A stretch of 64,000 bases of DNA, taken from contig CBDESZ010000006.1 of the NCBI GenBank assembly GCA_965242725.1, positions 76,831 through 140,830 of the forward strand, in the 5' to 3' direction. Below the pieces are notes generated by a model. That model saw nothing but the letters and a program-made list of their open reading frames with translations, did not search any database and was not told the DNA's origin. Position numbers and translations under genes: made by a program. This DNA is from Alkalispirochaeta sp. GTDB taxonomy: Bacteria > Spirochaetota > Spirochaetia > DSM-27196 > Alkalispirochaetaceae. How positions within the stretch are numbered: position 1 is the first letter of the stretch; each line of letters begins with the position of its first letter. Shown here in pieces: positions 763 to 41,522 of this stretch.

Positions 763-1428
763 ATGGGTGAACAAAGCGATATCGTACGGAAACGATATAA
801 TAGAATTGCTCCGCTCTACGATCTTATGGAAAGACCGATGGAGAGTCATGGCACCCAATGGAGAGACGAGCTTCTCCAAGAAGCTCACGGGCGGGTGCTG
901 GAAGTCGGCGTGGGCACGGGGAAGAACCTGGCGAGCTATCCCAAAGGGGTTCACGTAACCGGGATCGATTTCAGCTCCGGTATGATTGCACGGGCTCGCG
1001 AGCGAGTGCGGGAGCTTGGGCTTACAAATGTCACACTTATCGAGATGGATGCTGAGCAAATGGAGTTTTCGGACGACAGTTTTGACACGGTCGTAACGAC
1101 CTGTGTCTTTTGCTCGGTGCCGGTTCCGATCAAAGGATTGGAGGAGATCCATCGCGTCTGCAGGCCGGAAGGAAAGGTGCTCATGCTCGAGCACGTTCGG
1201 AGTAAGGGTGCAATTCTCGGTCCAATAATGGATTTTCTGAACCCGCTCCCATTGCATCTCTACGGTGCCAATATCAACCGACGGACCGTCGAAAATCTTC
1301 GCCTGGCCGGATTCAAGGACATTGAGGTCACCGACCTTTGGAAAGACATCATGAAACGGATCGTCGCTCGCCCGTACAAGACATCGGATAAATCGTTTGA
1401 CTTTATATGGGAGGTTACAAATGCGTAA
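763..1428 (+). CDS. Class I SAM-dependent methyltransferase (UbiE/PmtA-like)
   Basis: VLEVGVGTG motif I, FDTVV..CVFCSVP; start moved to ATG763 after AGGAGG. Confidence 0.85.
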   Translation: MGEQSDIVRKRYNRIAPLYDLMERPMESHGTQWRDELLQEAHGRVLEVGVGTGKNLASYPKGVHVTGIDFSSGMIARARERVRELGLTNVTLIEMDAEQMEFSDDSFDTVVTTCVFCSVPVPIKGLEEIHRVCRPEGKVLMLEHVRSKGAILGPIMDFLNPLPLHLYGANINRRTVENLRLAGFKDIEVTDLWKDIMKRIVARPYKTSDKSFDFIWEVTNA

Positions 1429-2473
1429 AATATTTTCAATAACGGTATCCATCTCGTTAGTGCTATTAATAGGTGTCGGCAGTTTGTTCGCGGCGGGCCG
1501 CGCGGAAGAGAGTGCACCGGCAGGAACTCCGACGATCGGCGTCGTCCACATCACCTTTGGCCCGTCTTATTGGTTTAGCGGGGTGGAGTATGCGAGCTTC
1601 GGCGCAGCCTATCGGGAGCAGTGGCGCCGCCTCTCGGAGGAGGAGAATTTCAAACTCATCCAAGTGGAGGCAGGCGTCACGGCATACGATCTCGAATTCG
1701 CAACCCGGCGTCTCATCGACCTCGGGGTCGATGCGATTCTGCTCTTTCAACACGATCCGTATGCTGCGGGTCAGGCGGTACAGCTTGCCCAGGAGGCCGG
1801 TATTCCCGTCGCCATACACGGCATCAGGCCGGCATCGGGAATCAAGGCTCCTTATGTGGGTTTCTCGGAGTACGAAACGTGCAGGCTCCTGGGTCAAATC
1901 GCGGCGGAACGGTTTACCGAGCAAACGCCGGGTGTGATTCCCCGCGTTCTGGTGCTGAACAATAGGACGGTGGAACGTGATGTCAATCGAGAGCGGGGGT
2001 TCCTCGACGGTTTCCGGTCCCGCGTCCCGGACGTTGAAATAATCCAAGCCCCGGAAGATAGCGGTACTCTGGAAAGCGCCCTGCGAGTAGCCGAGGTAGC
2101 GTTCTTCAACAATCCGGAAATCAACATGGTCTATGCCACTAGCGACGAGCGTGCCTTCGGCGTGATGCAGGCGTTGAATAACGCGAATATCGCTCCGGCG
2201 GAGGTCGGCATAGTCGCCGTCGGCGGCGGCGAACGCGCCATGAAAAACGTCCTTCAACAACATAATTGGTGGGCACAAGTCGGTCTCAATGTTCGCGGCG
2301 TCGCCGAAAAATCGTACGAAGTACTGTCGATGATGATGGCAGGCGACATTCCTTTTGGGAGCGAGCGGGAGATTCTGGTGGACTCGCCGATTTTTGTTGA
2401 TCCGTCGGTCGCGGAGGTGCGGGCCTATCTTCAAAACAATCACGGAATCGAAGCTCCTGACCTGACAAAGTAA
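1421..2473 (+). CDS. Sugar ABC-type periplasmic binding protein (RbsB-like fold), no adjacent permease
   Basis: Signal 'LFAAGRAEE'; LIDLGVDAILL, AQEAGIPV, R.RGF, D..A.G motifs; GGAGG before ATG1421. Confidence 0.75.
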   Translation: MRKIFSITVSISLVLLIGVGSLFAAGRAEESAPAGTPTIGVVHITFGPSYWFSGVEYASFGAAYREQWRRLSEEENFKLIQVEAGVTAYDLEFATRRLIDLGVDAILLFQHDPYAAGQAVQLAQEAGIPVAIHGIRPASGIKAPYVGFSEYETCRLLGQIAAERFTEQTPGVIPRVLVLNNRTVERDVNRERGFLDGFRSRVPDVEIIQAPEDSGTLESALRVAEVAFFNNPEINMVYATSDERAFGVMQALNNANIAPAEVGIVAVGGGERAMKNVLQQHNWWAQVGLNVRGVAEKSYEVLSMMMAGDIPFGSEREILVDSPIFVDPSVAEVRAYLQNNHGIEAPDLTK

Positions 2474-2480
2474 CACAATC

Positions 2481-4391
2481 TCACGGTGACGCGGATTGAT
2501 ACGCCAGCATACATTCCTCCGAGCAGAAGTAGTGCGTACGATCGGAGCTCTCGAGAACAAAGGGATTGCCCGTTTGATGCACTACCATACCGCAGACCGG
2601 GTCCATTGCTCCGTCGGAAATTCCGGTCGTCCGCACTTCGATATCCGAAACGGTTGGGACGCTCGTCCCGGTATTCCTGAGTATCTCGCTGACTTCTGCG
2701 GCGGTACTCACCGATACGCAGCGATTCGCGATTGTCCGAAACCGGTCCTCGGAGCCTTCCGGTACCGCGCGCCGTACCGCGTCCACCGCATGGACATCTA
2801 CGCTGAGATCTGAAAAACCGAGGCCGAAAAGCAGCGGGACCATGTCGGGATCCGAGGCGATCTCTCCACAGAGCGTCACCGGAACGGACGCGGCCTTCGC
2901 AGACTCGACGATGTGTGCCAGAGCCCGCAACGCGGTGGGGTGGTAAGGTCGGTAGAGGTGGCCCACATTCCCGTTTGTACGGTCTACGGCAAAGTGGTAC
3001 TGCAGCAGATCGTTGGTGCCGACGCTGACAAAATCGACCTTGTCATAAATCTCCTGCAGTGTCCAAAGAATGGAAGGGACCTCCAACAATACACCCTGCT
3101 TGAAATCACGCCGATACGGCGTCCCTTCAGCGTCGAGCTGTGCCCGTGCCTCGCCTACTAGGGAGAGTACCGCGTCGAGATCGTCGACGGTTTCTATCAT
3201 CGGAAAAAGCAGTCGGAGCTCCCCGCATTCAAGACCCGCCCGAAGGATGGCCTTCGTTTGCGTAATCAATATCTCCGGATGATAGGCGTAAATGCGATGC
3301 GCCCGAAGACCGAGGAAGGGGTTTTCCTGAGGACCGAGGGAAAAGAAGGAGAGACTCTTATCTCCGCCGACATCGAAGGTCCGGATTGTGACCGGAGAGG
3401 CGGGCCACTCCCGGCAGAGTGTGCGGTATTCCCGGTACTGCTGCTCTTCCGTCGGAAAGCCTTCCGCTCGGGTCAGGAGGAACTCGCTCCTGTAGAGGCC
3501 TATCCCGGCGATGCGCCCATCTTTGTCCGTCGACGATGCGTGGGTATCCACTACATTTAGGTAGACCGAGAGAGGCGAGGCCACGCTTCCACCTATGTCC
3601 GTTTTCTCCACTTCAATCCACTCTTCGATTTCCGGGTCCTTTAGCCCCAGTATGAGCCGCCCATTCGTGGTGTCTACGACAACCCGACTGCCGGCTACCT
3701 CCCTGAGGGACTCAACCCCGGCAACTCTGAGTACCGGTATGCCGAAGGCCTTCGCCATGATCGCGGCGTGGGAGAGGGGGGTTCCCGTTGCCGCAATAAT
3801 CGCTTTCACCCCCGCGTCCTTTGCCTCGAGAACCTCAGTCACCAGAAGCTCCTGGGTAACGAACACCGGGGCCTCCACATCGCAGACCGTCGAAAGTACG
3901 TCCTCCCGCTTTTGCCCGTCTAACCCTTCACGAAGCCGGCGGTGCAGATCCTCGATGTCGGAGGCTTTCTCCCTGGTTATCTCGTGACCGGAGCGTTGTA
4001 ACCGGGTCTTGACCGATCCGAAAACTTCCGCAACCGCGCTCTCCGCCGTCGCGTCTTCTTCTTCGATCCTCTTTCTGACCTGCTCCCGAAGTCCCTCATC
4101 TTTAAGAAGAAGGATGTGAGTCCGGAGGATATCGGCCTCGGAACCAAACCCTTCCGCTCGAAGTATCTCCTCGGTAGATGCAATCTCCGCCTCCAGTAAC
4201 GACATTTGCCTCTCTACGCGAGCGAACTCCGAAGCGTACGGCGCCTGAGCCGCGATCCGCCCGTTGTCGGGCGCCTGATGCGGTCGTGGTACGTCTCGAA
4301 AACAGATCGTGCCGGAAACCACCGGCGCCGTTGAAATCGGTATTCCCGCAAGGAACCTTACCCTGCCTTTGTCGTCTTCAGTCATCGTCAT
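2481..4391 (-). CDS. PEP-protein phosphotransferase (PTS Enzyme I family) fused to a C-terminal YHS domain
   Basis: SHAAIMAK phospho-His, GIGLYRSEF, IRTFDVGGDK, ENPFLGLR, SVGTNDLLQY, CGE motifs; C-terminal DPVCGM...HYFCSEEC. Confidence 0.85.
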   Translation of the reverse strand: MTMTEDDKGRVRFLAGIPISTAPVVSGTICFRDVPRPHQAPDNGRIAAQAPYASEFARVERQMSLLEAEIASTEEILRAEGFGSEADILRTHILLLKDEGLREQVRKRIEEEDATAESAVAEVFGSVKTRLQRSGHEITREKASDIEDLHRRLREGLDGQKREDVLSTVCDVEAPVFVTQELLVTEVLEAKDAGVKAIIAATGTPLSHAAIMAKAFGIPVLRVAGVESLREVAGSRVVVDTTNGRLILGLKDPEIEEWIEVEKTDIGGSVASPLSVYLNVVDTHASSTDKDGRIAGIGLYRSEFLLTRAEGFPTEEQQYREYRTLCREWPASPVTIRTFDVGGDKSLSFFSLGPQENPFLGLRAHRIYAYHPEILITQTKAILRAGLECGELRLLFPMIETVDDLDAVLSLVGEARAQLDAEGTPYRRDFKQGVLLEVPSILWTLQEIYDKVDFVSVGTNDLLQYHFAVDRTNGNVGHLYRPYHPTALRALAHIVESAKAASVPVTLCGEIASDPDMVPLLFGLGFSDLSVDVHAVDAVRRAVPEGSEDRFRTIANRCVSVSTAAEVSEILRNTGTSVPTVSDIEVRTTGISDGAMDPVCGMVVHQTGNPFVLESSDRTHYFCSEECMLAYQSASP

Positions 4392-4424
4392 TACCCCTTT
4401 CTCGAAACAGAGTATCAGTGACAG

Positions 4425-4518
4425 GTGACCGCAAGGTGACGAGTTTATTACAAATGTATGACAGCGCAGAGTTATATAGCGTCATCAAATTGCAATACGG
4501 TCGTTATATCTGCGTAAT
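4425..4518. promoter_or_regulatory. Divergent promoter region with two arrays of 11-bp-period OmpR/PhoB-type repeats
   Basis: Minus strand: TGTCAT, TGTAAT, CGTCAC, GGTCAC (plus-strand starts 4458, 4447, 4436, 4425). Plus strand: CGTCAT, TGCAAT, CGTTAT, CGTAAT (4480, 4491, 4502, 4513). Confidence 0.55.
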
Positions 4519-4591
4519 GCCGCTCTTTTATACTCCGCATAAATGTAGGCTGTTTGGAGCCGCAATAGCACTCAATGGAGGAAATTGCTAT

Positions 4592-5233
4592 ATGAATATG
4601 GACACCATGAACCAGTACGGGAAATTCCGCGCGACGTCGCACCGTGCCGCGCTCTTCGCGCTTATTCTGACGACCATGATCGGAGCGCCGACGGTCTTCT
4701 CCCTCCCCTTCGGTCATATGGGATTGGCCAATCACCGTTCCACGGGATACATAGGACCCTCGATCGGTATGTCGCCGGTTGAATCCGGCCCGGCCACCTG
4801 GGTCGGTCTCCGAGGGGGGTGGGAGTTTGATCACGCCGTCGCCGTGGGTGTAACGGGTAATTGGCTTCTAAGCAACATCGAGGAAGAGACCGGAAACAGC
4901 GCCAACCTCGGTTACGGAGGAATAGAGTTTCGGACGTTTCTATTGTCCCAGGCCCCGGTCTCCCTCGCCTTCGATTTAACAATCGGGGCCGGTTCCGTGG
5001 GAAGCGGCGTTCATTTCATGGGGGGAGGTCACCACGATTCCGACGAGGAGTCCGACGGCTTTTTCGTGGTCGAGCCGGAGCTGCAGTTGGTGTTTCGGGC
5101 GAATCGTTTCGTTCGCCTCGAATTGGGAGCCGGATACTTTATCACCAGCGGCGTCGACGTACCGGGAATTAACGATGGGGACTTGAGTGGGCCAAAGGCG
5201 ACGCTATCCATGAGCTTTGGAGACTGGCTATAG
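4592..5233 (+). CDS. Small outer-membrane beta-barrel protein with His/Met/acidic loop
   Basis: Signal peptide, amphipathic strands (YGGIEF, FFVVEPEL, LELGAGY), loop HFMGGGHHDSDEESD; GGAGG before ATG4592. Confidence 0.6.
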   Translation: MNMDTMNQYGKFRATSHRAALFALILTTMIGAPTVFSLPFGHMGLANHRSTGYIGPSIGMSPVESGPATWVGLRGGWEFDHAVAVGVTGNWLLSNIEEETGNSANLGYGGIEFRTFLLSQAPVSLAFDLTIGAGSVGSGVHFMGGGHHDSDEESDGFFVVEPELQLVFRANRFVRLELGAGYFITSGVDVPGINDGDLSGPKATLSMSFGDWL

Positions 5234-5299
5234 GAGCCCTCTCAGGACACGTGATACTCACCGCTGTTAGGTATAAATTCGTTCTACCGTGAGGCATTC

Positions 5300-5329
5300 T
5301 TCACATACCATAGAGTGGTAGGGTATAAT
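5300..5329 (+). promoter_or_regulatory. Sigma70 promoter for gap-ldh containing a CsoR-like operator
   Basis: TTCACA-N18-TATAAT with TACC-ATAGAGT-GGTA (5306-5320) directly after the -35; same geometry as the copB promoter. Confidence 0.6.
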
Positions 5330-5449
5330 CGGCGATGCGCTTTGGTTGATTCGGGCGCCGTATGCGACGGCCTGTGGCCGGCGGGACGCGTGACCGATTT
5401 TAGAATTGGAAGTCTGTTCATTAAAAGCTAATTTTAGAAGGAGGACCGT

Positions 5450-6514
5450 ATGAGCGAGAAAAAAACGAAAGTAGCGGTAAACGGCTACGGCGTGATAGGC
5501 AAACGAGTCGCCGACGCGGTGGTGGCACAACCGGATATGGAGCTTGTCGGGGTCGCGGACGTCGTCAACGATTACAGGATGAAGACGGCGGCGATTCGCG
5601 GGCTGCCCATTTACGCTGCGCTCCCGGAGAAAGCCGCCGGCATGCGCGAGGCGGGTCTCAGCATTGCAGGCGATCTGGACGACTTATTGGCGCAAAGTAC
5701 GGTCATCGTCGACTGTACGCCCAAAGGTATCGGAGCCAAAAACCTTGAACGATATACGAAGGCGGGGGTCAAGTCGATCTTTCAGGGAGGCGAAAGCCAC
5801 ACGCTCACCGGTCATTCATTTGTCGCACAGGCGAACTATGAGAGCGCTATCGGTCGCGACTCCACACGAGTCGTTTCGTGCAACACGACCAGCACCGTGC
5901 GCACACTGGTGGCACTTCGTTCAGCCGGGCTTCTGAAGAAGGCGAGAGGCGTATTGATTCGGAGAGCAACCGATCCGTGGGAATCCGACCACAGCGGGAT
6001 CATGAATACCGTCGTTCCGGAGCCCCATATTCCCAGCCATCAGGGCCCCGACGCACAAACGGTTATTCCGGATCTTGAAGTGGTAACGATCGCCGCCAAG
6101 GCGTCACACACGCAGACCCACAATCACTATTGGATCGTGGAACTCTCGCGCACCGTCGAGAAAGAAGAAATACTCGATGCGTTTCGTGCCGCTCCTCGTA
6201 TTGCGTTTATCCGCATGAGTGACGGTATTGTCGCGTTAAACAGCACCATTGAGCTGATGAAGGACCTTGGCCGGCCCCGCGGCGACATGTGGGAGGTAGC
6301 GCTGTGGGCAGACGTCCTGACGGTAAACGGAAACGAAGCGTACTACACCTACCAAGTGTACAACGAAGCGATCGTTGTGCCGGAGAACGTGGACGCAATT
6401 CGAGCGCTGAGCGGTGTCGTGTCGGATGCGCATGAGTCCATCCGAATAACCGACACGGCACTCGGCATGCGACGGGAGTTTCTGATTCAGGACGCCCCGG
6501 GAGATAAGAAATGA
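5450..6514 (+). CDS. gap: Type II (archaeal-type) phosphorylating glyceraldehyde-3-phosphate dehydrogenase
   Basis: VAVNGYGVIGKRVADAV, DCTPKGIG, FQGGE, RVVSCNTT catalytic Cys, PSHQGPD, IVVPENVDAIRA. Confidence 0.9.
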   Translation: MSEKKTKVAVNGYGVIGKRVADAVVAQPDMELVGVADVVNDYRMKTAAIRGLPIYAALPEKAAGMREAGLSIAGDLDDLLAQSTVIVDCTPKGIGAKNLERYTKAGVKSIFQGGESHTLTGHSFVAQANYESAIGRDSTRVVSCNTTSTVRTLVALRSAGLLKKARGVLIRRATDPWESDHSGIMNTVVPEPHIPSHQGPDAQTVIPDLEVVTIAAKASHTQTHNHYWIVELSRTVEKEEILDAFRAAPRIAFIRMSDGIVALNSTIELMKDLGRPRGDMWEVALWADVLTVNGNEAYYTYQVYNEAIVVPENVDAIRALSGVVSDAHESIRITDTALGMRREFLIQDAPGDKK

Positions 6515-7509
6515 ACCGTGTGTCGACGAATCCCCGGATCGACGGAGAGTCCGACCTGTCACATTCCATACACGCCGGAAAAGTTGCGGTGGTTGGAGCC
6601 GGCGGTGTCGGCGCGAGCTTTTCCTTTGCACTCCTGCTGAGCGGACTTGCGTCGGAGATCGTTCTCATCGATGCCAACCAATCCAAGGCCGAGGGAGAAG
6701 CATTAGATCTGAATCATGCGGTCCCGCACACGCATCCGACGCGGGTGTGGGCAGGAGATTACGGCGATTGTGCGGGGGCCGCGGTGACCATCGTAGCGGC
6801 CGGGGCTGCGCAGCAGTCCGATCAAAGCCGTCTGGAACTCGCGGAGAAAAATTCGGACATCTTCCGCCGGATTGTGCCGAATATCGTACGCAACAATCCG
6901 ACGGGAATCATTCTCGTCGCGACCAATCCGGTCGACGTACTGACCCGTCTCACATGGGAACTTTCGGGTATGCCGGAGGAAAAGGTCCTGGGCTCCGGGA
7001 CAATCCTCGACACGGCGAGATTCCGGCATCTTCTCAGTCTGCACTTTGGGGTAGATCCGCACAGCGTGCATGCCTACATCGTCGGTGAACACGGGGACAC
7101 CGAGGTGCCGCTCTGGTCGCTCGCGAACATCGCCGGCATGCGGTTTCCCGAGTTTTGCGCGGTCAATAACATGAAGTGCGACAATGACGAAATGGAGAAG
7201 ATATTTCGGAGAACCCGGGACGCGGCGTACGAAATCATCCGGAAGAAAGGTGCAACCTATTACGCGATCGGAGCCGGCCTCGTGCGGATCGTGACGGCGA
7301 TTCTGAGGAATCAGCGCACCGTGCTCTCAGTAAGTACCCGTATCACCGATTACTATGGGATAAACGGTACCTTCCTGAGTATGCCGTGTGTCGTCGGTGG
7401 CGCCGGAGTCGAACGGTATCTTCGTTTAAATCTGAGCGACGACGAGGCTACGGCATTACAACATTCGGCGGCCGTAGTGGACAAATCGATGGAATCGATA
7501 CGGCAATGA
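6511..7509 (+). CDS. ldh: L-lactate dehydrogenase
   Basis: GAGGVG, ATNPVD, GSGTILDTARFR, GEHGD, KGATYYAIG; overlaps the gap stop (ATGA). Confidence 0.9.
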   Translation: MNRVSTNPRIDGESDLSHSIHAGKVAVVGAGGVGASFSFALLLSGLASEIVLIDANQSKAEGEALDLNHAVPHTHPTRVWAGDYGDCAGAAVTIVAAGAAQQSDQSRLELAEKNSDIFRRIVPNIVRNNPTGIILVATNPVDVLTRLTWELSGMPEEKVLGSGTILDTARFRHLLSLHFGVDPHSVHAYIVGEHGDTEVPLWSLANIAGMRFPEFCAVNNMKCDNDEMEKIFRRTRDAAYEIIRKKGATYYAIGAGLVRIVTAILRNQRTVLSVSTRITDYYGINGTFLSMPCVVGGAGVERYLRLNLSDDEATALQHSAAVVDKSMESIRQ

Positions 7510-7536
7510 TACCCCTTACGTCACGGTTGGTCGCAA

Positions 7537-8019
7537 CTACCTCTTTGCCAGTAGCATTAACGGCCAGGGTAGGACGAGTAGCTGAACAAAAGGTGAAACT
7601 CCAATACCGAGGAGCGGTACCATCGGCATGAGCGAGGAGTATACCCAACGACCGGTCGCGAGAGCGTGGAACTCGATAGCGGCGGCGATAACCGCACCGA
7701 CAATTGCCAAGATCGCCACATTTCCGGCGGTGAGCGGACGAAACCAGTCCAGTGAGCGATAGAATAGATACCCCGTCGCCCAGATGGCGACAATGATCAG
7801 CCCGTCTCCTAAGCTCGCTCTCAAACAGATTAACCAGCTCGAAAGCTCACTGAAGGGCATATTCTCGTAGAGCGGCATTTGCGCCATCTCCCAAACATAG
7901 TTGACGACCACGGAAATGAAGAACAGTCGCAGAAGGAAACGGCCCGTCGGACTTTTCAAAACAGCTCCGCCTCCCATTACCGCATCTCCGAGGCGCTTAC
8001 GCTGCTTGTTCGATACCAT
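7537..8019 (-). CDS. Hypothetical integral membrane protein (start uncertain)
   Basis: About 4 hydrophobic segments; WEMAQMPLY, GDG, GRWVYS..MP motifs. Confidence 0.6.
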   Translation of the reverse strand: MVSNKQRKRLGDAVMGGGAVLKSPTGRFLLRLFFISVVVNYVWEMAQMPLYENMPFSELSSWLICLRASLGDGLIIVAIWATGYLFYRSLDWFRPLTAGNVAILAIVGAVIAAAIEFHALATGRWVYSSLMPMVPLLGIGVSPFVQLLVLPWPLMLLAKR

Positions 8020-8152
8020 ATCGGGGTAATTGCATCGAAGGTGCCCTCACCATGGATCACTTCCATATTTGTTGCTTTTCCCCACTGATCAATTATAAAC
8101 ACCGATTTCCTCTATGAATGAGCGTCCGGTACGATGTTACCCATACGAGGTA
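8014..8152. promoter_or_regulatory. Two further CsoR-like TACC-N7-GGTA boxes
   Basis: TACC-ATATCGG-GGTA at 8014-8028 and TACC-CATACGA-GGTA at 8138-8152. Confidence 0.45.
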
Positions 8153-8609
8153 TCGTATGTACAGTGTATCGAGGGCGAACCGGACACAGCCATGACGGCG
8201 GCGTCCGATAAGACTGTTTCGGGCGGTTATTGAATGAGTGGATGTAGAGGACTCAGGAACAACCACCCGCTGCCGCGTTGATGTCCCCACGGGCAACCGA
8301 TGAGATCGTCCTTCCCGGCGAGATATCGCGGGGTACGGCAAAGCTTCAGTCCGTTCAGAATATTACCAAAGTTGTCGAGCGGAACATGGGTAAAGGGAAA
8401 GTGTTTGACTCTGCCCGCCAGGGCATACGTAACCCGACCGATCCCAGGGGTATACGAGAATTCCTACAGTCCGGAGGTACTGGTAAGCGGTCCGCACATT
8501 CGTGATCCGGAGCGGGCGAAATGCCGGTACCAACGCGACCATCTCCGGATCGTTCGGTACCGGTAGCCTTTTTTGTGGTGTCGAATGGGTATTCGTACTC
8601 CGTTTCCTT

Positions 8610-8888
8610 CTACCGACGATATGTACCGAGCATACTCATGATCTCTTTTTGCTTTTCCGTTTGCTCGGTGAGATTCTCGCTTCGAATCGCATCGGCGACA
8701 CAGGTGTCAAGATGATTCTGGAGAACGATGTTCTCGACGTTGCGTATCGCCGCGACTACGGCCGAAGTCTGGTTCAGTATGTCTAAGCAGTATCGATCTG
8801 TTTCAACCATTTTACTGACCCCGCCGAGCTGGCCCCGAATCCTGCTTAAGCGATCGCGTATACTCTTTTTTTGTTTATCGTCAAGCAT
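8610..8888 (-). CDS. csoR: Copper-sensing repressor, CsoR family
   Basis: RLSRIRGQ..G..KM...RYC.DIL.Q, H..TC fingerprint. Confidence 0.9.
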   Translation of the reverse strand: MLDDKQKKSIRDRLSRIRGQLGGVSKMVETDRYCLDILNQTSAVVAAIRNVENIVLQNHLDTCVADAIRSENLTEQTEKQKEIMSMLGTYRR

Positions 8889-8920
8889 GCCGTACCTCTG
8901 ATTGTCGGTTCATATGTTTT

Positions 8921-9019
8921 TATACCCCGGTAGGGTATATACTATCAACCCTCACTCGTCGACACAAGTGTCTCATCCGAGTTTATGACTTGACATACCC
9001 CCACGGGGTATATTATATT
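8921..9019. promoter_or_regulatory. csoR/copB divergent promoter with two CsoR operators
   Basis: TATACCC-CGGTA-GGGTATA (8921-8939); TTGACA(8990)-TACCCCCACGGGGTA(8996-9010)-TATATT(9014). Confidence 0.8.
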
Positions 9020-9126
9020 GATATTAGCGTATGAATCTTTTTTAATCGAAGGGCGATACGGCTGATTAATCCGGGCTCCTGATGAGTCCGGAAGAGGTAC
9101 ACAGCGCCCTTCGAAAGGAGCCACGT

Positions 9127-11157
9127 ATGAGTAAGCAGGTTGACCACAATCACCACAATCACCACGGTGATCAACACCATGACCACAATGAACATCACAG
9201 GATGATGATCCGTGATTTCCGAACGCGGTTTTACGTGACCCTGGTGTTCACCATTCCGGTCCTCGCGTTATCGGAACTCATTCAGCAGTTCCTCGGCTTT
9301 TCGTTCACCTTTGCCGGAGCGGATTATGTCGTCTTTGGCCTGGCCACGATCATATTTGTATATGGCGGCTGGCCCTTCCTTAGCGGTCTGGTCGGTGAAC
9401 TTAAGCAGAAAGCACCGGGCATGATGACCCTCATCGCTCTCGCCATAACGGTAGCGTATGTCTACAGCGCGGCGGTAACGTTTGGTCTTGAAGGGACACC
9501 TTTTTATTGGGAATTGGCAACCTTAATCGCGATTATGCTTGCGGGTCACTGGATTGAAATGGCCTCAGTATTAAGTGCGTCGTCCGCCCTTGAGAAGCTT
9601 GCCCAACTCATGCCGAACGAAGCGCACAAAAAGTCCGGAGACGATGTTAAAGACGTCCCGCTCTCGGAGATCAAGAAGGGTGATATTCTGGTCATCAAGC
9701 CGGGAGAAAAAATACCCTCTGACGGCGTGATCACTCGCGGGTCGAGCTATATAGATGAGTCTATGCTGACCGGTGAGTCTCGCCCGGTGCACAAGGAGTC
9801 AGGCGATCAGCTTATCGGCGGCTCTATAAACGGCGACGGATCGATGGAACTCAGGGTGGAAAGTTCGGGCGAAGATTCCTACCTTTCAAAAGTCATCAAT
9901 ATGGTCAGGGAGGCGCAGGCAGCCAAGTCGAAGACGCAAGCACTTTCGGATCGTGCGGCGCTCTGGCTGACGATTGTCGCAATAACGGTGGGATTATCGA
10001 CCCTCGTGGCGTGGTTGCTTGCCGGGCAGGGGTTGCAGTTTTCCATTGCCCGGATGGCGACGGTAATGATCATTACGTGTCCCCACGCTTTAGGGCTGGC
10101 GATACCATTGGTGGTAGCACAGTCCACCGCCAAGTCCGCTCAGAACGGCCTGCTGATTCGCAACCGTACCGCCTTTGAGAATGCCCGGAAGATAAGCGCG
10201 GTCCTCTTTGATAAAACGGGAACGCTTACCAAGGGAACCTTCGAGGTTAACTCCGTGAATGTCCATAGCGGTCCGTACACAGAAAAGGAAATTCTCTCAT
10301 TTGCGGCAGCCTTGGAGGGGCAGTCGGAACACCCCATCGGTAAGGGAATTGTGACAAAAGCGAAGAGCGACGGAATCACCATCCAATCTGCCGATGATTT
10401 CGAGGCGATTAAGGGTAAGGGCGTCACCGGTACCGTCGGGAGTAAGCGCATTCAGGTAGTGAGCCCGGGATATTTGGAAGAACAGGGGCTCGACAGGCCG
10501 CAGGGAGCGGAGCGCAAGGGCGGGGTCACCCGCGTCTTCGTCCTCGTTGACGGCGAAGTTGCAGGATCCGTGGCTCTTTCCGACACCATTCGACCCGAGT
10601 CCTACCGGGCGATTCAAGCGCTGAAAAAACGGGGAATCGAATGCTGGATGCTCACCGGAGATAACCGGGAGACTGCCGAAGCCGTTGCGGAGGAACTCGG
10701 AATGGACGGGTTCTTTGCGGAGGTCCTCCCCGATCAGAAGCAGGAAAAGGTGAAGGAGTTGCAGGACAAAGGAGCGTATGTTGCTATGACCGGTGATGGG
10801 GTCAATGATTCGCCGGCCCTCGCCCAGGCACAGATCGGCATTGCCGTCGGGTCCGGAACGGACGTTGCCGCTGCGACGGCCGATATTATACTGGTCAACT
10901 CCAACCCACTTGATATTACCGCGTTAATTCTCTTTGGTCGGGCTACCTACCGGAAAATGGTGCAGAACCTGATCTGGGCAACGGGTTACAACGTGGTGGC
11001 CATCCCCCTGGCGGCAGGCGTTTTATACAGTAGCACCGGTATGGTGCTTTCACCGGAGGTTGGTGCCATTCTGATGTCCCTTTCCACCGTGATTGTTGCC
11101 GTAAACGCGCGACTCTTGCGCGTCAAGAAAGAGGAATTGGAAGAGGCGACGGCTTGA
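9127..11157 (+). CDS. copB: Copper-exporting P1B-3 ATPase (CopB type)
   Basis: His-rich N-terminus, TGES, CPHALG, DKTGT, SEHP, GDGVND, YN and MSLST motifs; AAGGAG before ATG9127. Confidence 0.92.
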   Translation: MSKQVDHNHHNHHGDQHHDHNEHHRMMIRDFRTRFYVTLVFTIPVLALSELIQQFLGFSFTFAGADYVVFGLATIIFVYGGWPFLSGLVGELKQKAPGMMTLIALAITVAYVYSAAVTFGLEGTPFYWELATLIAIMLAGHWIEMASVLSASSALEKLAQLMPNEAHKKSGDDVKDVPLSEIKKGDILVIKPGEKIPSDGVITRGSSYIDESMLTGESRPVHKESGDQLIGGSINGDGSMELRVESSGEDSYLSKVINMVREAQAAKSKTQALSDRAALWLTIVAITVGLSTLVAWLLAGQGLQFSIARMATVMIITCPHALGLAIPLVVAQSTAKSAQNGLLIRNRTAFENARKISAVLFDKTGTLTKGTFEVNSVNVHSGPYTEKEILSFAAALEGQSEHPIGKGIVTKAKSDGITIQSADDFEAIKGKGVTGTVGSKRIQVVSPGYLEEQGLDRPQGAERKGGVTRVFVLVDGEVAGSVALSDTIRPESYRAIQALKKRGIECWMLTGDNRETAEAVAEELGMDGFFAEVLPDQKQEKVKELQDKGAYVAMTGDGVNDSPALAQAQIGIAVGSGTDVAAATADIILVNSNPLDITALILFGRATYRKMVQNLIWATGYNVVAIPLAAGVLYSSTGMVLSPEVGAILMSLSTVIVAVNARLLRVKKEELEEATA

Positions 11158-11177
11158 TTGTCCCGGTTTTTAGTAAC

Positions 11178-11218
11178 TGTAACATGATCGCAACATAGCG
11201 GTCGCCGGAATGTAACAT
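11178..11218 (+). promoter_or_regulatory. Putative OmpR-family tandem binding site
   Basis: TGTAAC(11178), CGCAAC(11189), GGTCGC(11200), TGTAAC(11211) at 11-bp period upstream of the SHOCT/two-component operon. Confidence 0.45.
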
Positions 11219-11253
11219 TGAATGGATATGATTTGTACTACCAGGAGGAAACG

Positions 11254-11436
11254 ATGGGACTTTTACTGATTATTGTGTTATTCGCCGTGGGATACTTTAT
11301 GTACAAGAACGGATTGATCCCGGCGTCTCTCGATGGCGCCGATCGAAAGGCGCCGATCGATATTATCAACGAGCGCTACGCCCGGGGTGAAATCGACCGG
11401 GAAGAATACGAGCGACTCAGACGAGATCTGAATTAA
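11254..11436 (+). CDS. Small membrane-anchored SHOCT-domain protein
   Basis: One TM helix; IINERYARGEIDREEY; AGGAGG before ATG11254. Confidence 0.8.
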   Translation: MGLLLIIVLFAVGYFMYKNGLIPASLDGADRKAPIDIINERYARGEIDREEYERLRRDLN

Positions 11437-11458
11437 GTTTGACTTGGAGGAACAATAC

Positions 11459-11725
11459 ATGATGCACAACAACTGGGGCTGGGGAACCGGCATGGGATTT
11501 GGATACGGAGGCGGTATCGTCTCCATCCTGCTGATAGCGGTAATTCTCATCGGAGGATTCTTCTTCATACGGTGGATTATCCGTCGAACCGATGGAGACG
11601 GGCTTTCCCCCGGCGGATCAGGCCGACGTGACCCGGCGGAGATACTTAAGGAACGGTACGCGAAAGGTGAAATTTCCAGGGAAGAGTACCGAAGCATGTT
11701 GTCGGACATAAGAGGTGGAGAGTAA
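11459..11725 (+). CDS. SHOCT-domain membrane protein with Met/Gly/Trp-rich N-terminus
   Basis: MMHNNWGWGTGMGFG, TM helix, ILKERYAKGEISREEY. Confidence 0.8.
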   Translation: MMHNNWGWGTGMGFGYGGGIVSILLIAVILIGGFFFIRWIIRRTDGDGLSPGGSGRRDPAEILKERYAKGEISREEYRSMLSDIRGGE

Positions 11726-12420
11726 TGATTTATAGTCGAAAATCGTTCTTGTTTGCGGTGGCACTGGCTTTTTTTGTAGCGGGAATTGCCACTGCTCAGG
11801 AGGATGCACACGGACGCGACGTCGAGGAAATTCTCCAACAGATCATACAGGTTCAGGGAGTAGAACGGGTCGGCCAAATTGACGCCAATGCGGTCGACCG
11901 GGATCTCCTTGAAGAGCTCGGAGACGGCGTCATGGGCCTCATGATTGCGGACGACGAGCGGCACGAATGGATGGATCGAATGATGGGAGGCGAAGGCTCC
12001 GCTGAGCTTGCCTCCACGCACGCCTGGCTTGGATATAACTACCTTCAAAATGACGGTAATCTCGCCTCCTTCGGCCCCGGAATGATGGGGTTCGGAATGA
12101 TGGGCCCCGGTATGATGGGTGGCTGGAACTGGGGCGCGGACCGTAACGGACCCTGGTCGGAAACCTGGGGTGATCGGGGAAGCTGGTACGGCGGAACGCC
12201 GTTTAGTCGGCAGGCCGGTACCTACCTCTGGATTATCGGACTTCTCGTTTTGGTACTGATAGTCGCTATCATTGTAGCGCTCGTGCGGACCAGGACGCCC
12301 CGACACGGCTCGCAATCGGGCAAATCAGGTGAGAGCGCCGTCGCCATCCTGCAGGCTCGCTATGCCAGGGGCGAGCTTTCTCAAGAAGAGTATCGTCAAA
12401 TTAAAAAGGAGCTGCGGTGA
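11725..12420 (+). CDS. Met/Gly-rich exported protein with TM helix and SHOCT domain (paralog of 156..692)
   Basis: RHEWMDRMMGGEGS motif, GPGMMG repeats, ILQARYARGELSQEEY. Confidence 0.78.
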   Translation: MIYSRKSFLFAVALAFFVAGIATAQEDAHGRDVEEILQQIIQVQGVERVGQIDANAVDRDLLEELGDGVMGLMIADDERHEWMDRMMGGEGSAELASTHAWLGYNYLQNDGNLASFGPGMMGFGMMGPGMMGGWNWGADRNGPWSETWGDRGSWYGGTPFSRQAGTYLWIIGLLVLVLIVAIIVALVRTRTPRHGSQSGKSGESAVAILQARYARGELSQEEYRQIKKELR

Positions 12421-12441
12421 ATTCGATTAGCAGGGTAGCTT

Positions 12442-13137
12442 ATGGCCGGTGAGCGCATTCTCATCGTTGACGATGAGGCCGGCATACAGAAGACACTAAA
12501 GGCGTATCTGGAAAATGAAGGATACGCCACGGAGTCAGTAACCGAAGGCGATTGGGTGCTCCCGAGGGTACAGATATTTAAGCCTGACGTTGTTATTCTT
12601 GATATTATGCTCCCAGGAATTGATGGAATAGAAGTATTAAGACGACTCCGGCAGGACTCCTCCGTATTGGTGCTCATGCTCAGCGCCAAGGGCGAGGAGT
12701 CCGACCGTCTCGTGGGACTCAAAATGGGGGCAGATGACTACGTCGTAAAACCATTTAGTCCCCGGGAGGTTGTAACTCGGGTCGGCGTTCTCCTTCGGCG
12801 CGGTCGGGGAGCGGACGGCGACCCGGGCGACGTTATTAGATTTTCCCGAATCACCGTCGACCCGGGCAGCAGACAAGCGTGGAAAGATGCGACAATACTG
12901 AGCCTGACTCCGATAGAGTTTGACTTGCTCCTCACCCTTTCCCGCAACAGCGGGCGAGTCCTCAGTCGAGATCAGTTGATCGACCACGCCTGGGGTGACG
13001 ACTACTACATCGATGAGCGTGTCGTTGATGTGCACGTTCGCAGACTCCGCAGGAAGATCGAAGACGATCCCCGAGAAGCCCGAATTATTGCCACCGCGCG
13101 AGGTGCCGGCTATCGCCTGGATTCCAATCACGCATGA
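12442..13137 (+). CDS. OmpR-family response regulator
   Basis: ILIVDDE, LDIMLPG, GADDYVVKPFS, winged helix VDVHVRRLRRK..RGAGY. Confidence 0.92.
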   Translation: MAGERILIVDDEAGIQKTLKAYLENEGYATESVTEGDWVLPRVQIFKPDVVILDIMLPGIDGIEVLRRLRQDSSVLVLMLSAKGEESDRLVGLKMGADDYVVKPFSPREVVTRVGVLLRRGRGADGDPGDVIRFSRITVDPGSRQAWKDATILSLTPIEFDLLLTLSRNSGRVLSRDQLIDHAWGDDYYIDERVVDVHVRRLRRKIEDDPREARIIATARGAGYRLDSNHA

Positions 13138-14255
13138 AGCTGGAAACATTCTTAAAACCGAAACTTGGACGTAAGCTCTTTCTTTCCCATTTGATTGTTG
13201 TACTCGTGGGAAGCGTGGTCCTGGCGGCCGTCGCCTACCTGCACGCACCTCGCGCGCTGACACATCACATGGCGGAAATGGACGCAGCAATGGGGCGGAT
13301 GCACGGCATGGGAGTGGATCTCAGGCAGAGTTTTCTTGCTGCGGTGGGCGAGGTGCTCTTCGTCGCGGGACTCGTCGCCGTCGGGGCGGCGGTAGTGGTG
13401 AGCAGTTTCGTGGCATGGCGAATTATCGGGCCAGTTCGTTCTTTGACGGTTGCCAGTAGACGTATCGCCGACGGCGATTACTCCCACCGAGTCGAGGCCG
13501 TCTGGAAGGATGAGTTGGGAGAGCTGGCCGCGTCGTTCAATCGCATGGCTGCCGCACTCGATGAAACCGAAAGGAGACGTGCGGAACTTATTGGCAATGT
13601 AGCCCACGAACTTCGCACGCCGCTCACAACGATTCGGAGCATGATGGAAGGGCTCATTGATGGTGTGTTGCCGGCGGATACCGAAACCTTTCTCGACGTA
13701 CAGCGCGAGGCATCACGGCTCGGCCGTCTCACCTCAGAATTGAGCGAGCTCTCTCGTGCCGAAGCGGGGGAGATTTCATTGGAAACCAAGCTGACGGATC
13801 CGAAAGTACTGCTCCGAATAGCCGTTAATCGCCTTCGTCCGCAATTCCAGGACAAAGGTATTGCGCTGACGGTCGGGTTTCCACAACGAAACCTGCCGTG
13901 GGTCGATGTAGATGACGAAAAGATACTCCAGGTTCTGCTCAATTTAATCGGAAATGCACTCCAATATACCGACCCGGAGGGTAGCGTCCAGGTACAGTGC
14001 CAAGCGGAGGGAGATTTGGTTCGGTTTTCCGTTTCTGATGATGGAATCGGCATTCCGCCCGAGGATCTCCCTCGGGTGTTTGAGCGATTCTATCGGGTGG
14101 ATAAGTCGCGAGCACGCTCCCGCGGTGGGAGCGGAATCGGTCTCACTATTGCCGCTCATTTGGTGAAGGCTCATGGTGGAACAATCGCGGTCAAAAGTAA
14201 TGGGATTGGTCAAGGAAGTGTTTTTTCTTTCGTCATCCCACGACCGAAAGATTAA
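13134..14255 (+). CDS. HAMP-domain sensor histidine kinase (BaeS-like) with short His/Met-rich sensor loop
   Basis: Loop HHMAEMDAAMGRMHGMG between two TM helices; AHELRTP, N, G1, F and G2 boxes. Confidence 0.9.
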   Translation: MKLETFLKPKLGRKLFLSHLIVVLVGSVVLAAVAYLHAPRALTHHMAEMDAAMGRMHGMGVDLRQSFLAAVGEVLFVAGLVAVGAAVVVSSFVAWRIIGPVRSLTVASRRIADGDYSHRVEAVWKDELGELAASFNRMAAALDETERRRAELIGNVAHELRTPLTTIRSMMEGLIDGVLPADTETFLDVQREASRLGRLTSELSELSRAEAGEISLETKLTDPKVLLRIAVNRLRPQFQDKGIALTVGFPQRNLPWVDVDDEKILQVLLNLIGNALQYTDPEGSVQVQCQAEGDLVRFSVSDDGIGIPPEDLPRVFERFYRVDKSRARSRGGSGIGLTIAAHLVKAHGGTIAVKSNGIGQGSVFSFVIPRPKD

Positions 14256-14349
14256 ACAATTTATCCGTCTGACACATGGCAGAACGTATTCGTGTTGATG
14301 GGTATGAACGAGTGCGGAGTGACGCTCCGCACCCGGATGTTTGCCGCTC

Positions 14350-14559
14350 TTATCTGACCGCTCCAACCGTATAACCCGCCTCGGAAACTGATTGAGCGTA
14401 CGTCTCCAAGGGAATCTCAGCTTGAACATTTACGGAAGCGACTCCCGACTGCAAATCAACCGTTACGGTGGAGACGCCGTCGATTTTTTCAAGCGCTTGC
14501 CGAACACTCATCGCACAGTGATCGCAACTCATATCCTTAATGTAAACTTGTTGTGTCAT
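14350..14559 (-). CDS. copZ: Copper chaperone (HMA domain)
   Basis: 69 aa, MSCDHC metal-binding loop, EAGY. Confidence 0.9.
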   Translation of the reverse strand: MTQQVYIKDMSCDHCAMSVRQALEKIDGVSTVTVDLQSGVASVNVQAEIPLETYAQSVSEAGYTVGAVR

Positions 14560-14581
14560 ATCGACCTCCTGAAAAATACAT

Positions 14582-14596
14582 TACCCCTGTAGGGTA
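14582..14596. promoter_or_regulatory. CsoR operator upstream of copZ
   Basis: TACC-CCTGTAG-GGTA. Confidence 0.75.
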
Positions 14597-14697
14597 TATA
14601 GAATTATACATCGTCGATATTTGTGGGTCAAGTGCTCCCCAGAATATTTTCATGGCGTAACAAACGCTCACCGCCGTTCCCGATTTGGTTGTTCCGC

Positions 14698-15330
14698 TTA
14701 AGGATAGGCCGTAATACGTTTTATGATGTCCTTCCAGAGATTTGTCACTTCGATATCGCGAAATCCCGCCCGGCGAAGATTATCCACGGTTCGGCGGTTG
14801 ATGTTTGCCCCATAAAGATGGAGTGGAAGAGGGTTTAGAACGTCCATAAGAGGACCGAGTATCGGGCCTTCACTGCGAACGTGCTCGAGCATGAGCACCT
14901 TACCGTCCGGTTTGCATACACGGTGAATCTCTTTGAGACCGGCTACGGGAAGTGGTACCGAGCAAAACACGCATGTCGAGACAACCGTATCGAACGTATT
15001 GTCGTCAAAATCGAGGTGCTGTGCATCCATTTCCAGGAGCGTTACGTTAGATAGGCCATGCTGCGCTTTTCGGTCGGCTGCACGTGCAATCATCGCCCGG
15101 CTGAAATCGATCGCCGTGACCGAGACGTCCTTCGGGTAGTAGGGAAGGTTTTTACCCGTACCGACTCCCACTTCAAGAACTGCACCTTTCGCGAAACTCA
15201 ACAATTCTTCGCGCCACGACGACGCCATCCGCTCCATCGGGTTTTCTAATAGATCATATACGGGAGCGATTCGGTCGTACCGTTGTTGGATTTTGTTAAT
15301 TTGTTTTGTCATATCATGTACCTTAGTCAA
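14698..15330 (-). CDS. Class I SAM-dependent methyltransferase, close paralog of 763..1428
   Basis: Long identical peptide blocks shared with the first copy (VLEVGVGTGKNL, LNPLPLHLYGANINRRTV). Confidence 0.85.
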   Translation of the reverse strand: MTKVHDMTKQINKIQQRYDRIAPVYDLLENPMERMASSWREELLSFAKGAVLEVGVGTGKNLPYYPKDVSVTAIDFSRAMIARAADRKAQHGLSNVTLLEMDAQHLDFDDNTFDTVVSTCVFCSVPLPVAGLKEIHRVCKPDGKVLMLEHVRSEGPILGPLMDVLNPLPLHLYGANINRRTVDNLRRAGFRDIEVTNLWKDIIKRITAYP

Positions 15331-15518
15331 AGTTTCTTTTCACGCGCCTGCTTCCCGAACATCTTAAATATAACGCTATGGTATGTATGAGAATTGACGG
15401 CGATATTACAGTTTGATGAATTGTTTTCTCCGGACGAAATACAGTTGCCTCGTTTTGCTGTTGCCATTCGATGCCTTTGTTGGTTACGTTAGGATGTCGT
15501 AGACTACGGGGGTATGGT

Positions 15519-15797
15519 ATGATGAAAGAAGAACAGAGGGAAAAAGTACGGAACAGGTTACGCCGGATTGAAGGACAGATTGCCGGGATTGGTCGTATGA
15601 TTGATGATGACCGATACTGTGTCGACATTCTCAACCAAACGTCGGCCGTCATCGCGGCGATCAGGAACGTTGAGAATATCGTAATGGAGAACCACTTGAA
15701 CACATGTGTCGTCGATGCGATTCGGAGCGGAGATCCTGAGGAACAACGCCTGAAGACGACCGAAATTATGGATGTGCTTGGCAAGTATCGGAAGTGA
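15519..15797 (+). CDS. csoR: Second CsoR-family repressor
   Basis: RLRRIEGQ..RYCVDILNQ..ENHLNTC; near-match operator TACG-GGGGTAT-GGTA at 15505-15519. Confidence 0.88.
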   Translation: MMKEEQREKVRNRLRRIEGQIAGIGRMIDDDRYCVDILNQTSAVIAAIRNVENIVMENHLNTCVVDAIRSGDPEEQRLKTTEIMDVLGKYRK

Positions 15798-15827
15798 AGA
15801 TATTCGCGGGGGCGCGAAACAGATAGA

Positions 15828-16472
15828 TTATCTACCGTCGCGGAATTTCACATAGAGGCGGCGCAGGGCAAAAATCGCGACTGAAACGCCAATTCCCATC
15901 AGTGACAAACGTATCCAATCGTTTCGGGCAAGTGCACTGCCCATGGAGAGAATGACAAAGGCAAAGGGTGTCATACCGATAAGGCTGGCGAGAGCGTAAG
16001 TGCGGAAGGAGACCGCTTTGGTCAAACCAAGCACGTAACTTGGTATCTCCACGGGAAATATCATCCGTATAATGACGATCGCCAGAAAACCCGTGTCCCG
16101 GGGTATCCTGTTCTCCCATTCCTGCAGTCTCTCCGGGGAAACCAGTTTTACCAGAACCGGTCTGCCAAGATACCGAGCGATGAGAAAAGCGATGACGGCA
16201 CCGATCCACCAGCCAAGGATGCTCAGGATACCTCCTATGGTAATACCCCATGCCGCTGCCGCTATGGGTATCAGTGGCATGGAAGAAAGGGGAAGGACCA
16301 CGATCGCCGCGGCCGTCACGGCTACATAGATCATCGCCGTACCTACGGGGTAGTCGATGGCGTACTGGGCGATGACGGAAACCAACAGCGGAAAATATTG
16401 AAACGAAAACAACAGACCCGAGGCGATAAGCAGGGCGACAAGTACTCGTACAAGCAGAACCGGGAGTCTCAT
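15828..16472 (-). CDS. TVP38/TMEM64 (VTT/DedA-like) membrane protein
   Basis: G..IAFLIARYLGR, IIRM..P...SYVLGL; start at 16472 overlaps the upstream stop. Confidence 0.8.
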   Translation of the reverse strand: MRLPVLLVRVLVALLIASGLLFSFQYFPLLVSVIAQYAIDYPVGTAMIYVAVTAAAIVVLPLSSMPLIPIAAAAWGITIGGILSILGWWIGAVIAFLIARYLGRPVLVKLVSPERLQEWENRIPRDTGFLAIVIIRMIFPVEIPSYVLGLTKAVSFRTYALASLIGMTPFAFVILSMGSALARNDWIRLSLMGIGVSVAIFALRRLYVKFRDGR

Positions 16473-17779: not shown

Positions 17780-17927
17780 GCTTCCTTGTTATGCATAGTA
17801 ATAAATTTTAATTCTATGATCTCACCTTTTTATGCGATGCGATGTGTGTTTATACATTTCCAAACTGGCACGGATGCCAGTTTGCCTATATATAATCCCT
17901 TCTCCCAAAAAAGGGCGGGGTAATTGC

Positions 17928-17990
17928 ATCTAACGTCCTGCGAATAGCCGAAGTTACCAAGGCATTCACCTGTCAACAATGTCCTTAGCT
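17928..17990 (-). other. Truncated attC (R' side only) at the head of the araC cassette
   Basis: Minus strand ..CGCAGGAC-GTTAGAT core site and a small hairpin; no matching R''/L'' arm. Confidence 0.4.
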
Positions 17991-18026
17991 TTCTGTAAAC
18001 CATCTCCATGATCAGTACCTGTGTCC

Positions 18027-18125
18027 ACATAACGATGAGTTGAGTTGTTTGGCGTTAATCGGCGCGGTTGTTGCAGAAGCAAGAACCGTGACGATAGCCA
18101 AATCAACTCGAACGTGGTGTTATGT
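18027..18125 (-). other. attC site (99 bp) closing the higBA cassette
   Basis: Minus strand R'' ACATAAC, L'' GTTCGAG vs L' CTCAAC (extra C), TTGATTTGGC vs GCCAAACAA (extra A), R' GTTATGT. Confidence 0.88.
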
Positions 18126-41516: not shown

Positions 41517-41522
41517 ATCCTC

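Follow-up and report, generated by a model that had tools for sequence, protein, structure and literature searches.

An apparent CsoR-type operator in the promoter of an archaeal-type GAPDH and lactate dehydrogenase operon on an Alkalispirochaeta copper island

In the CsoR regulons described for csoR/copZA of Streptomyces lividans and copA and copX/B of Staphylococcus aureus, and for type 2 operators (PMC3902906, PMC5947656, PMC11672702), a repressor with an x-C-H-C motif acts on a TAC-N9-GTA dyad that overlaps the promoters of copA, copB and copZ. The same traits are found in a stretch of 64,000 nucleotides from Alkalispirochaeta sp. (the window; C6:76831-140830 of the 4.34-Mb genome G000; G, L and C label genomes, loci and contigs), whose contig C6 carries a copper island. 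There, the genes gap and ldh, encoding an archaeal-type glyceraldehyde-3-phosphate dehydrogenase (GAPDH) and a lactate dehydrogenase (LDH), share a promoter that, judged from its sequence, is fitted with a CsoR-type operator, and a better one precedes pflBA, encoding pyruvate formate-lyase (PFL). Unlike in the described regulons, the likely targets include gap-ldh and pflBA, and the operator consists of two dyads in tandem with a 5-bp shift. The cited literature lists pumps, chaperones, an oxidase and copper-binding proteins as CsoR targets, and describes only indirect answers to copper-hit glycolysis; here, a copper sensor appears to be in direct control of glycolytic and fermentative enzymes.

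The nearest precedent is the set of genes under CopR in Lactococcus lactis, which includes the lactate oxidase gene lctO (PMC5651008). As proposed here, a copper repressor acts directly on a gene of lactate metabolism, but CopR belongs to the CopR/CopY family and LctO is an NAD-independent oxidase, a reputed antioxidant rather than a glycolytic isoenzyme. A rationale for a spare GAPDH comes from the inhibition of class I GapA by copper in S. aureus and Streptococcus pyogenes. In S. aureus, GapA is a main pool of cytosolic copper, which binds to the enzyme and inhibits it, and no CsoR site was found at gapA (PMC6350627). The response is indirect in both species, without a second GAPDH induced by a copper sensor as is proposed here. 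Literature searches returned no copper- or CsoR-controlled type II GAPDH or PFL; subscription journals and supplements lay outside their scope and could hold a precedent.

The gap-ldh promoter and its operator

The gap promoter matches the sigma70 consensus at 11 of 12 positions. An earlier reading made from the sequence alone (the sequence-only reading) had pointed out that it is spaced around TACC-N7-GGTA exactly as the copB promoter is, and the coordinates bear this out: the 15-bp box TACCATAGAGTGGTA lies at 5306-5320, and in the copB promoter TTGACA (8990-8995), box (8996-9010) and TATATT (9014-9019) follow each other at equal distances. In full, the gap operator reads TACCATAG-AGTG-GTAGGGTA, 20 bp that differ by a single mismatch from TACCNTAC-N4-GTANGGTA, i.e., two TAC-N9-GTA dyads shifted by 5 bp. 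The first dyad (5306-5320) is exact, the second (5311-5325) has TAG instead of TAC, and the final TA is common to the -10 hexamer. The dyad is required for CsoR binding in S. lividans, where G/C tracts add a shape read-out (PMC3902906). Among the traits of a CsoR type 2 operator, the gap site shows the dyad, the match to the csoR operators of relatives and the overlap with the promoter. The same layout of -35, operator and -10 is found before csoR or copper-ATPase genes in relatives.

How much weight such a site can bear depends on the pattern used. The window has 8 occurrences of TACC-N7-GGTA where shuffles give 0.30, and G000 as a whole has 65 where 64 are expected; being at chance level genome-wide, the 15-bp pattern alone cannot make a single site significant. 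The 20-bp tandem pattern with at most one mismatch has 5 sites in the genome against 0.46 expected, all at C6:61465-91407 and within 30 kb of the island. Since this pattern was drawn after viewing those same sites, it was tested with an independent matrix, obtained by de novo palindromic motif discovery in the 150 bp upstream of csoR in 28 other Spirochaetales genomes (csoR is matched in 72 of 99 genomes of the order; the set comprises the returned loci minus G000 and G003). Motif discovery gave nnATACCnTACCCGGGTAnGGTATnn in 25 of the 28 regions. With the 26-bp matrix, the seven highest scores in G000 all fall on the island: pflB (27.3 bits), copZ (26.3), an MMPL gene (23.8), copA (23.6), a hypothetical gene (22.3), a YVTN-type gene (22.0) and gap (21.7). 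The gap operator, seventh here, ranks tenth with a 21-bp and fifth with a 30-bp matrix; its score lies inside the training range (7.1-31.5) and above that of the copB operator (17.1 bits, rank 10 with the 26-bp matrix). None of 19,731 off-island windows of 220 bp reaches 21.7 bits (maximum 18.9). When 159 near-consensus sigma70 promoters were ranked, gap came first and copB second, the third scored 6.1 and the median was -7.3, so that promoter-like sequence does not account for the score. The membership of gap-ldh in a CsoR regulon, proposed by the sequence-only reading, thereby gains support from the independent matrix, the promoter-overlapping site and the copper-type CsoRs described below.

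The 20-bp pattern is present in 22 of 61 genomes searched. As read from the adjacent open reading frames (ORFs), the majority of the 20 non-identical loci listed have csoR, a copper ATPase or another island gene behind it. In Spirochaetales, the tandem operator can serve to mark CsoR regulons. An initial matrix, made with the island's own boxes, placed the 15-bp gap box only at about rank 56 and was superseded by the independent one. Boxes at 7605 and 8138 score as chance, and one at 8014 is ambiguous, with 16.5 bits by the 21-bp matrix and 5.3 by the 26-bp matrix. An operator-like site of 16.5 bits at G000:C6:20352-20377, downstream of the rnf operon, has no obvious target gene.

Both CsoR proteins score far above the PF02583 cut-off of 22.8 bits (88.5 and 96.3) and carry C34, H59 and C63, the second-shell residues Y33 and E82, and R13-L14-x-R16; genes for a P1B ATPase and CopZ are their neighbours. 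The x-C-H-C signature is the defining Cu(I)-sensor motif of CsoR (PMC11672702), and by these ligands both proteins are assigned to the Cu(I)-sensing type.

A second metabolic operon, pflB-pflA (L021:11606-14775, i.e., G000:C6:68605-71774), lies 8 kb upstream of the window and is identified by TIGR01255 (1167 bits) and TIGR02493, respectively. The highest-scoring operator of the genome stands 47 bp before the pflB start codon, and a separate operator, 110 bp away, belongs to the divergent hypothetical gene. The congener G013 has lost pflB, the greater part of pflA and the pflB-side operator but has kept the neighbour's operator, which ties the pflB-side site to pflB. Nowhere in G000 but on the island are pflB and this ldh present. 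The pflBA operator, as a predicted site, strengthens the idea of a metabolic arm in the copper regulon.

Contig sets of four RNA libraries, three of them from one study, were mapped on positions 1200-16200 of the window. The runs had been chosen by gap-ldh, contig depth cannot rank genes, and no copper condition is among them; the cover of gap, ldh, csoR1, the copB run, copZ and csoR2 is accordingly a weak hint. Contigs begin at 5337 and 5348, beside the predicted start, which contigs cannot prove. No contig cover was found in the four runs on 2202-5207 (EI-YHS and the gene upstream of the gap promoter), which does not prove silence.

Table 1. Features around gap-ldh, with positions in the window
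Feature	Position	Strand	Remarks
PTS enzyme I with C-terminal YHS-like domain (EI-YHS)	2481..4391	-	island cargo
Unannotated gene, no Pfam match	4592..5233	+	upstream of gap promoter; G013 homologue also precedes a CsoR-type operator
gap-ldh promoter, sigma70-type (predicted)	5300..5329	+	TTCACA 5300-5305, TATAAT 5324-5329, spacer 18; predicted start ~5336
Tandem CsoR-type operator of gap (predicted)	5306..5325	.	fills -35/-10 spacer, overlaps -10
gap ribosome-binding site AAGGAGG	5438..5444	+	from sequence
Type II (archaeal-type) phosphorylating GAPDH, mobile bacterial clade	5450..6514	+	Cys144, His224, Asp37
L-lactate dehydrogenase	6511..7509	+	ATGA-coupled to gap
lnt remnant behind csoR1	8429..8524	-	G013 has intact lnt genes there
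CsoR 1	8610..8888	-	Cys34, His59, Cys63; RLxR; Tyr33, Glu82
csoR1 operator	8918..8937	.	
copB promoter with operator	8990..9019	+	
CopB-type (CPH) copper P1B ATPase	9082..11157	+	
CopZ-like chaperone	14350..14559	-	
copZ operator	14577..14596	.	
csoR2 operator	15500..15519	.	
CsoR 2	15519..15797	+	60% identical to CsoR 1, same Cys-His-Cys motif

The GAPDH clade and its copper neighbourhood

The assignment of the island GAPDH to class II, already read from its SCNTT motif, is confirmed by NF003251 (455.6 bits, cut-off 185) and TIGR01546 (352.3, cut-off 232.9) against 19 bits for the class I model, and the protein matches the archaeal structure 1CF2 at E 1e-90. So is the coupling to ldh: the two ORFs, both intact, overlap by ATGA at 6511-6514 behind GGAGA at 6500-6504. 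The second protein scores 376.3 bits with the LDH model TIGR01771 (cut-off 303.55) against 223-279 for malate dehydrogenase (MDH) models, and its translation contains AGAAQ, with Gln at the LDH/MDH specificity position, and GEHGD. It is the only close LDH match in G000, where two others reach 32%. A class I gapA lies elsewhere in G000 (C18:217544), next to which there is one more class I-like gene in the genome, which makes the island GAPDH a second enzyme.

Among 198 homologues (79 genome loci plus P0002-P0120) aligned to 1CF2, Cys144 and His224, the latter the catalytic histidine of type II GAPDH, are invariant. Asp37 is found in 197 of them at a position where the NADP-bound enzyme of Methanothermus fervidus (1CF2) has Lys, and the basic residues after strand 2 are absent from the island protein (Asp37-Val-Val against Lys-Thr-Arg). 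The Lys-Thr-Arg stretch of the archaeal enzyme serves NADP binding, and an acidic residue at the position of Asp37 marks NAD+ use. This agrees with the coupling to ldh, which itself suggests a glycolytic direction; NAD+ preference and glycolytic direction are, from these residues and the gene order, quite probable. The protein thus resembles the archaeal type II enzymes (1CF2, 2CZC, 1B7G, 2YYY and Haloferax GapII) in its family, its SCNTT and its aligned catalytic His, and differs in belonging to a bacterial, mobile clade of plasmids and islands with Asp37 in place of the Lys-Thr-Arg stretch. In contrast to the glycolytic direction suggested here, GapII of Haloferax is gluconeogenic (PMC11023807). 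Archaeal-type GAPDHs make up 7,996 of 8,000 scored candidates in the protein collection. The class II GAPDHs of G007, G009 and G051 belong to another subclade (37-38% identity for the two aligned) and stand in operons of the transketolase/pgk type that lack copper genes. A second bacterial class II subclade was seen in a transketolase-gap-pgk-dehydrogenase operon unrelated to copper (L024:8116-12260, L026:138-5040).

Across phyla, the clade is, by its gene neighbourhoods, recurrently associated with copper islands. The co-occurrence of type II gap with cop genes, put forward for checking by the sequence-only reading, was positive in three collections. First, among the best 80 of 255 genome relatives of the GAPDH gene (gapII; one is the identical island and counts use the other 79), a P1B ATPase of CPC, CPH or CPD type lies near gapII in 34 loci, and a core copper marker in 49; of the 34 loci that are at least 15 kb long, 20 have such an ATPase. 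A P1B ATPase neighbour is expected by chance at about 2%, a one-genome baseline from the five such ATPases of G000. Second, among the best 80 of 345 metagenome relatives (one identical, 79 counted), 26 have a P-type ATPase match and 36 a core marker. Finally, 33 plasmid records match the GAPDH at no less than 58% along most of its length; the 21 viewed, several of them near-duplicates and with flanks of 8-18 kb, show a heavy-metal ATPase in 13, a copper marker in 17 and none in 4. Among five more distant class II GAPDHs (two on plasmids, three in related genomes), copper neighbours were not seen. Eight neighbouring ATPases all pass TIGR01511, a model that is not copper-specific, as a Zn/Cd-type control passes it too. 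Often gapII stands directly before the ATPase pump, in gene orders that differ across many phyla. Its most frequent direct neighbour is a P1B subgroup with CPD instead of CPC or CPH and with YN...MxxSS (e.g., L028:11160-13577, L044, L053, L066, L071, L075, L104 and others).

In five actinobacterial loci (L103, L104, L170, L178, L179), co-directional runs led by an operator include gapII: the run copZ-copB-DUF305-gapII of two Corynebacterium plasmids stands behind a near-perfect operator of 27.1 bits, and in three loci of the Arthrobacter group, an operator heads ATPase-xfp-hydrolase-gapII with gaps of up to 175 nt. A site on an Agrobacterium plasmid (L176, 20.5 bits) lies at the csoR start, some 240 bp from an icmt-gap unit, and was not counted; in L241/L243 and L075, csoR is near gap and no matrix match was found. 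Other phyla may use other regulators for gapII. Other enzymes encoded on islands with gapII include phosphoketolase, Pfk, class I aldolase, PGK, glycogen phosphorylase, POR and arginine deiminase. Class I fructose-bisphosphate aldolase was seen on the same islands (L293:4086-5174 and G000:C6:21606-22727) and at several other gapII loci; the G000 gene has no operator.

Readings of the copper link

On balance, we favour gap-ldh as a CsoR-repressed operon that would sustain energy metabolism under copper. Without copper, CsoR would occupy the tandem operator between -35 and -10 and block RNA polymerase. Cu(I) bound at Cys-His-Cys would release it, and transcription of gap-ldh would begin along with that of copA, copB, copZ, the csoR genes and pflBA. 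The cell would gain a second, unrelated GAPDH and two outlets for pyruvate: LDH would regenerate NAD+ and PFL yield acetyl-CoA without NADH, and ATP production at substrate level could persist even as the housekeeping GapA suffers copper damage and ATP is spent by the pumps. The parts of this proposal are not equally firm. Binding of CsoR and induction by copper are likely from the operator evidence, whereas a benefit of gap-ldh under copper is only somewhat favoured. A class II enzyme less copper-sensitive than GapA is rather doubtful, and an extra dose of enzyme may be the sole gain. The proposal would offer a testable reason for the thousands of archaeal-type GAPDH genes and for the clade's presence on metal-resistance plasmids, and it makes testable whether copper resistance includes the replacement of a poisoned enzyme.

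Several observations weigh against it. The centre of the gap operator, AGTG, reads CATAGAGTG with no runs other than CC, GG and GGG, so that the G/C tracts expected between the dyads of a type 2 operator are absent there; because of this, the site, a dyad without tracts, may be a weaker one. The sequence-only reading had rightly noted the lack of C/G tracts, and the full operator is stronger than it assumed; unusual centres also occur at the pflB site and at sites in G045, G021 and G057. The pairing of gap with ldh is a local trait of this island, and so is an operator directly on gap. Both genes are present in only 2 of 99 genomes of the order, an identical stretch of the island recurs in L027, and the other copies of the gap promoter (G003, L027, L181) are identical over 3.4 kb where compared, so that they carry no conservation signal for the promoter. 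No TACC-N7-GGTA lies within 400 bp of gap in the 79 other genome loci (4 of them incomplete there), and none of the non-identical loci scanned with the matrix, be they from genomes, plasmids or metagenomes, shows a site directly before gap. Of the 79 genome loci, 1 has ldh near gap, and of the 79 metagenome loci, 2; 30 of the 79 genome loci, 8 of them at least 15 kb long, lack a core copper marker; pflB carries no operator in 15 other spirochaetes. The G013 island lacks gap-ldh and pflBA, which makes these genes dispensable. In S. aureus, extra gapA copies or overexpression gave no rise in copper tolerance, and copper lowered the ldh and pflB proteins (PMC6350627); under microaerobic copper stress, more lactate was formed and ldh was not induced (10.64898/2026.06.18.732922). 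Inhibition is proposed to involve Cu bound to Cys and His of the GAPDH catalytic site (PMC10903455), and as these residues are retained in the island enzyme, its sequence gives no sign of copper resistance.

The best-surviving alternative, still improbable, is that CsoR does control gap-ldh, through shuffling alone and without benefit, the GAPDH being linked cargo. In the congener G013, gap-ldh is missing from an island that is diverged and partly syntenic (65-91% nucleotide identity). What follows its homologue of the 4592-5233 gene, in the same place, is an operator of 22.8 bits, and the gene driven by it is of the YVTN type; this operator shares 16 of 20 positions with the gap operator, and because other island operators reach up to 15 of 20, homology is unproven. 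The lnt remnant is a trace of rearrangement. Before the G013 rnfC (L294:16949-18332, contig C14), which heads rnfCDGEAB, a stretch of about 60 bp holds a CsoR-type operator (20.6 bits); this stretch is missing from the rnfC promoter of G000, which suggests that such cassettes come and go. These comparisons show a reshuffling of promoter cassettes and genes on this island, through which gap-ldh probably came under CsoR locally, by capture behind an existing island promoter; the absence of an operator directly on gap elsewhere fits this. Against capture without benefit stand the two separate metabolic operons with top-ranked operators, the loss of the pflB-side operator together with pflB in G013 while the neighbour kept its own, the recurrence of the copper-pump linkage in many phyla and varied gene orders, and the integrity of both ORFs.

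Less probable still, the GAPDH could be a sacrificial Cu(I) sink or have another non-glycolytic role, through its active-site Cys and clustered histidines. His197, His220, His224 and His226 are kept in 195-198 of the 198 close homologues, His220 being absent from the archaeal structures; GapA is itself a main copper pool in S. aureus (PMC6350627), and gap often directly precedes a copper-type ATPase. On the other side, four more distant clade members lack His220, and the neighbours are often enzymes of carbon and energy metabolism (Pfk, class I aldolase, PGK, phosphoketolase, glycogen phosphorylase, POR, LDH, PFL), with which a metabolic role fits. A low-oxygen fermentation unit under FNR, CRP or Rex, with a secondary copper link, is very improbable: LDH, PFL, POR, arginine deiminase and phosphoketolase are fermentation functions and the genome has two Rex-like genes, but scans with the FNR, CRP and Rex consensus boxes gave at least 2 mismatches at the gap and pfl promoters and no exact box in C6:40000-99000, and FNR-type boxes number 5 in 169 homologue loci against 5-13 for control spacings. 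That the gap box is a chance match or dead relic to which CsoR does not bind is hardly credible, for the chance frequency of the 15-bp pattern, the tract-free centre and the TA shared with the -10 are outweighed by the independent matrix and both null sets, off-island windows and near-consensus promoters.

The CsoR-repressed energy operon may be part of something broader. The metabolic-rescue arm of copper resistance imagined by the sequence-only reading gained pflBA, with the genome's best operator, and lost support for EI-YHS, for which no operator-like site was found here (best 2.3 bits, independent matrix) and no RNA contigs map. We regard it as a tentative idea that copper islands of many phyla carry such an arm of isoenzymes controlled by copper repressors, and equally speculative is its candidate membership: a Cu(I)-tolerant class II GAPDH, class I aldolase, LDH and PFL, with Rnf in G013. 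Class I aldolases need no metal (PMC12965863). If true, the arm would replace metal-sensitive steps of central metabolism, and on this island it would be wired directly to CsoR, with operator cassettes gained and lost before energy genes.

Further features of the island

The EI-YHS fusion, seen on spirochaete copper islands, is rare: 12 proteins at E 1e-40 among 1,427 candidates, 8 of them with PF04945; the YHS domain of the window protein scores 24 bits, below the cut-off. A relative in G553 (L297:8598-10604) has an operator 90 bp before the gene, shared with a divergent gene. At 15500-15521 of the window and in L118, L125-L127 and L147, a csoR operator and -10 abut the start codon, which suggests leaderless csoR transcripts in Spirochaetales. 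Genes for lipoprotein processing, lgt downstream of copA (L021:5834-6796) and two lnt genes beside a CsoR operator (L022:11126-14890), are, by position, probably under copper control.

A SHOCT-domain gene is duplicated, at 36-693 of the window and at L021:10385-11042 (659 bp, 97.6% identical), with several further SHOCT genes at 11218-12420. Paralogue pairs on the island are formed by SAM methyltransferases (712-1428 and 14698-15330) and by lipoproteins with a sugar-binding fold (1397-2473 and L021:4654-5712). Insertion sequences cluster at 17693-23613 and 39477-43613, with exact repeats of 2,272 bp at 100% and of 1,339 bp at 99.9% to C6:4895. A toxin-antitoxin-like pair lies at 19430-20047, and the GC content rises to about 0.67 beyond 23 kb.

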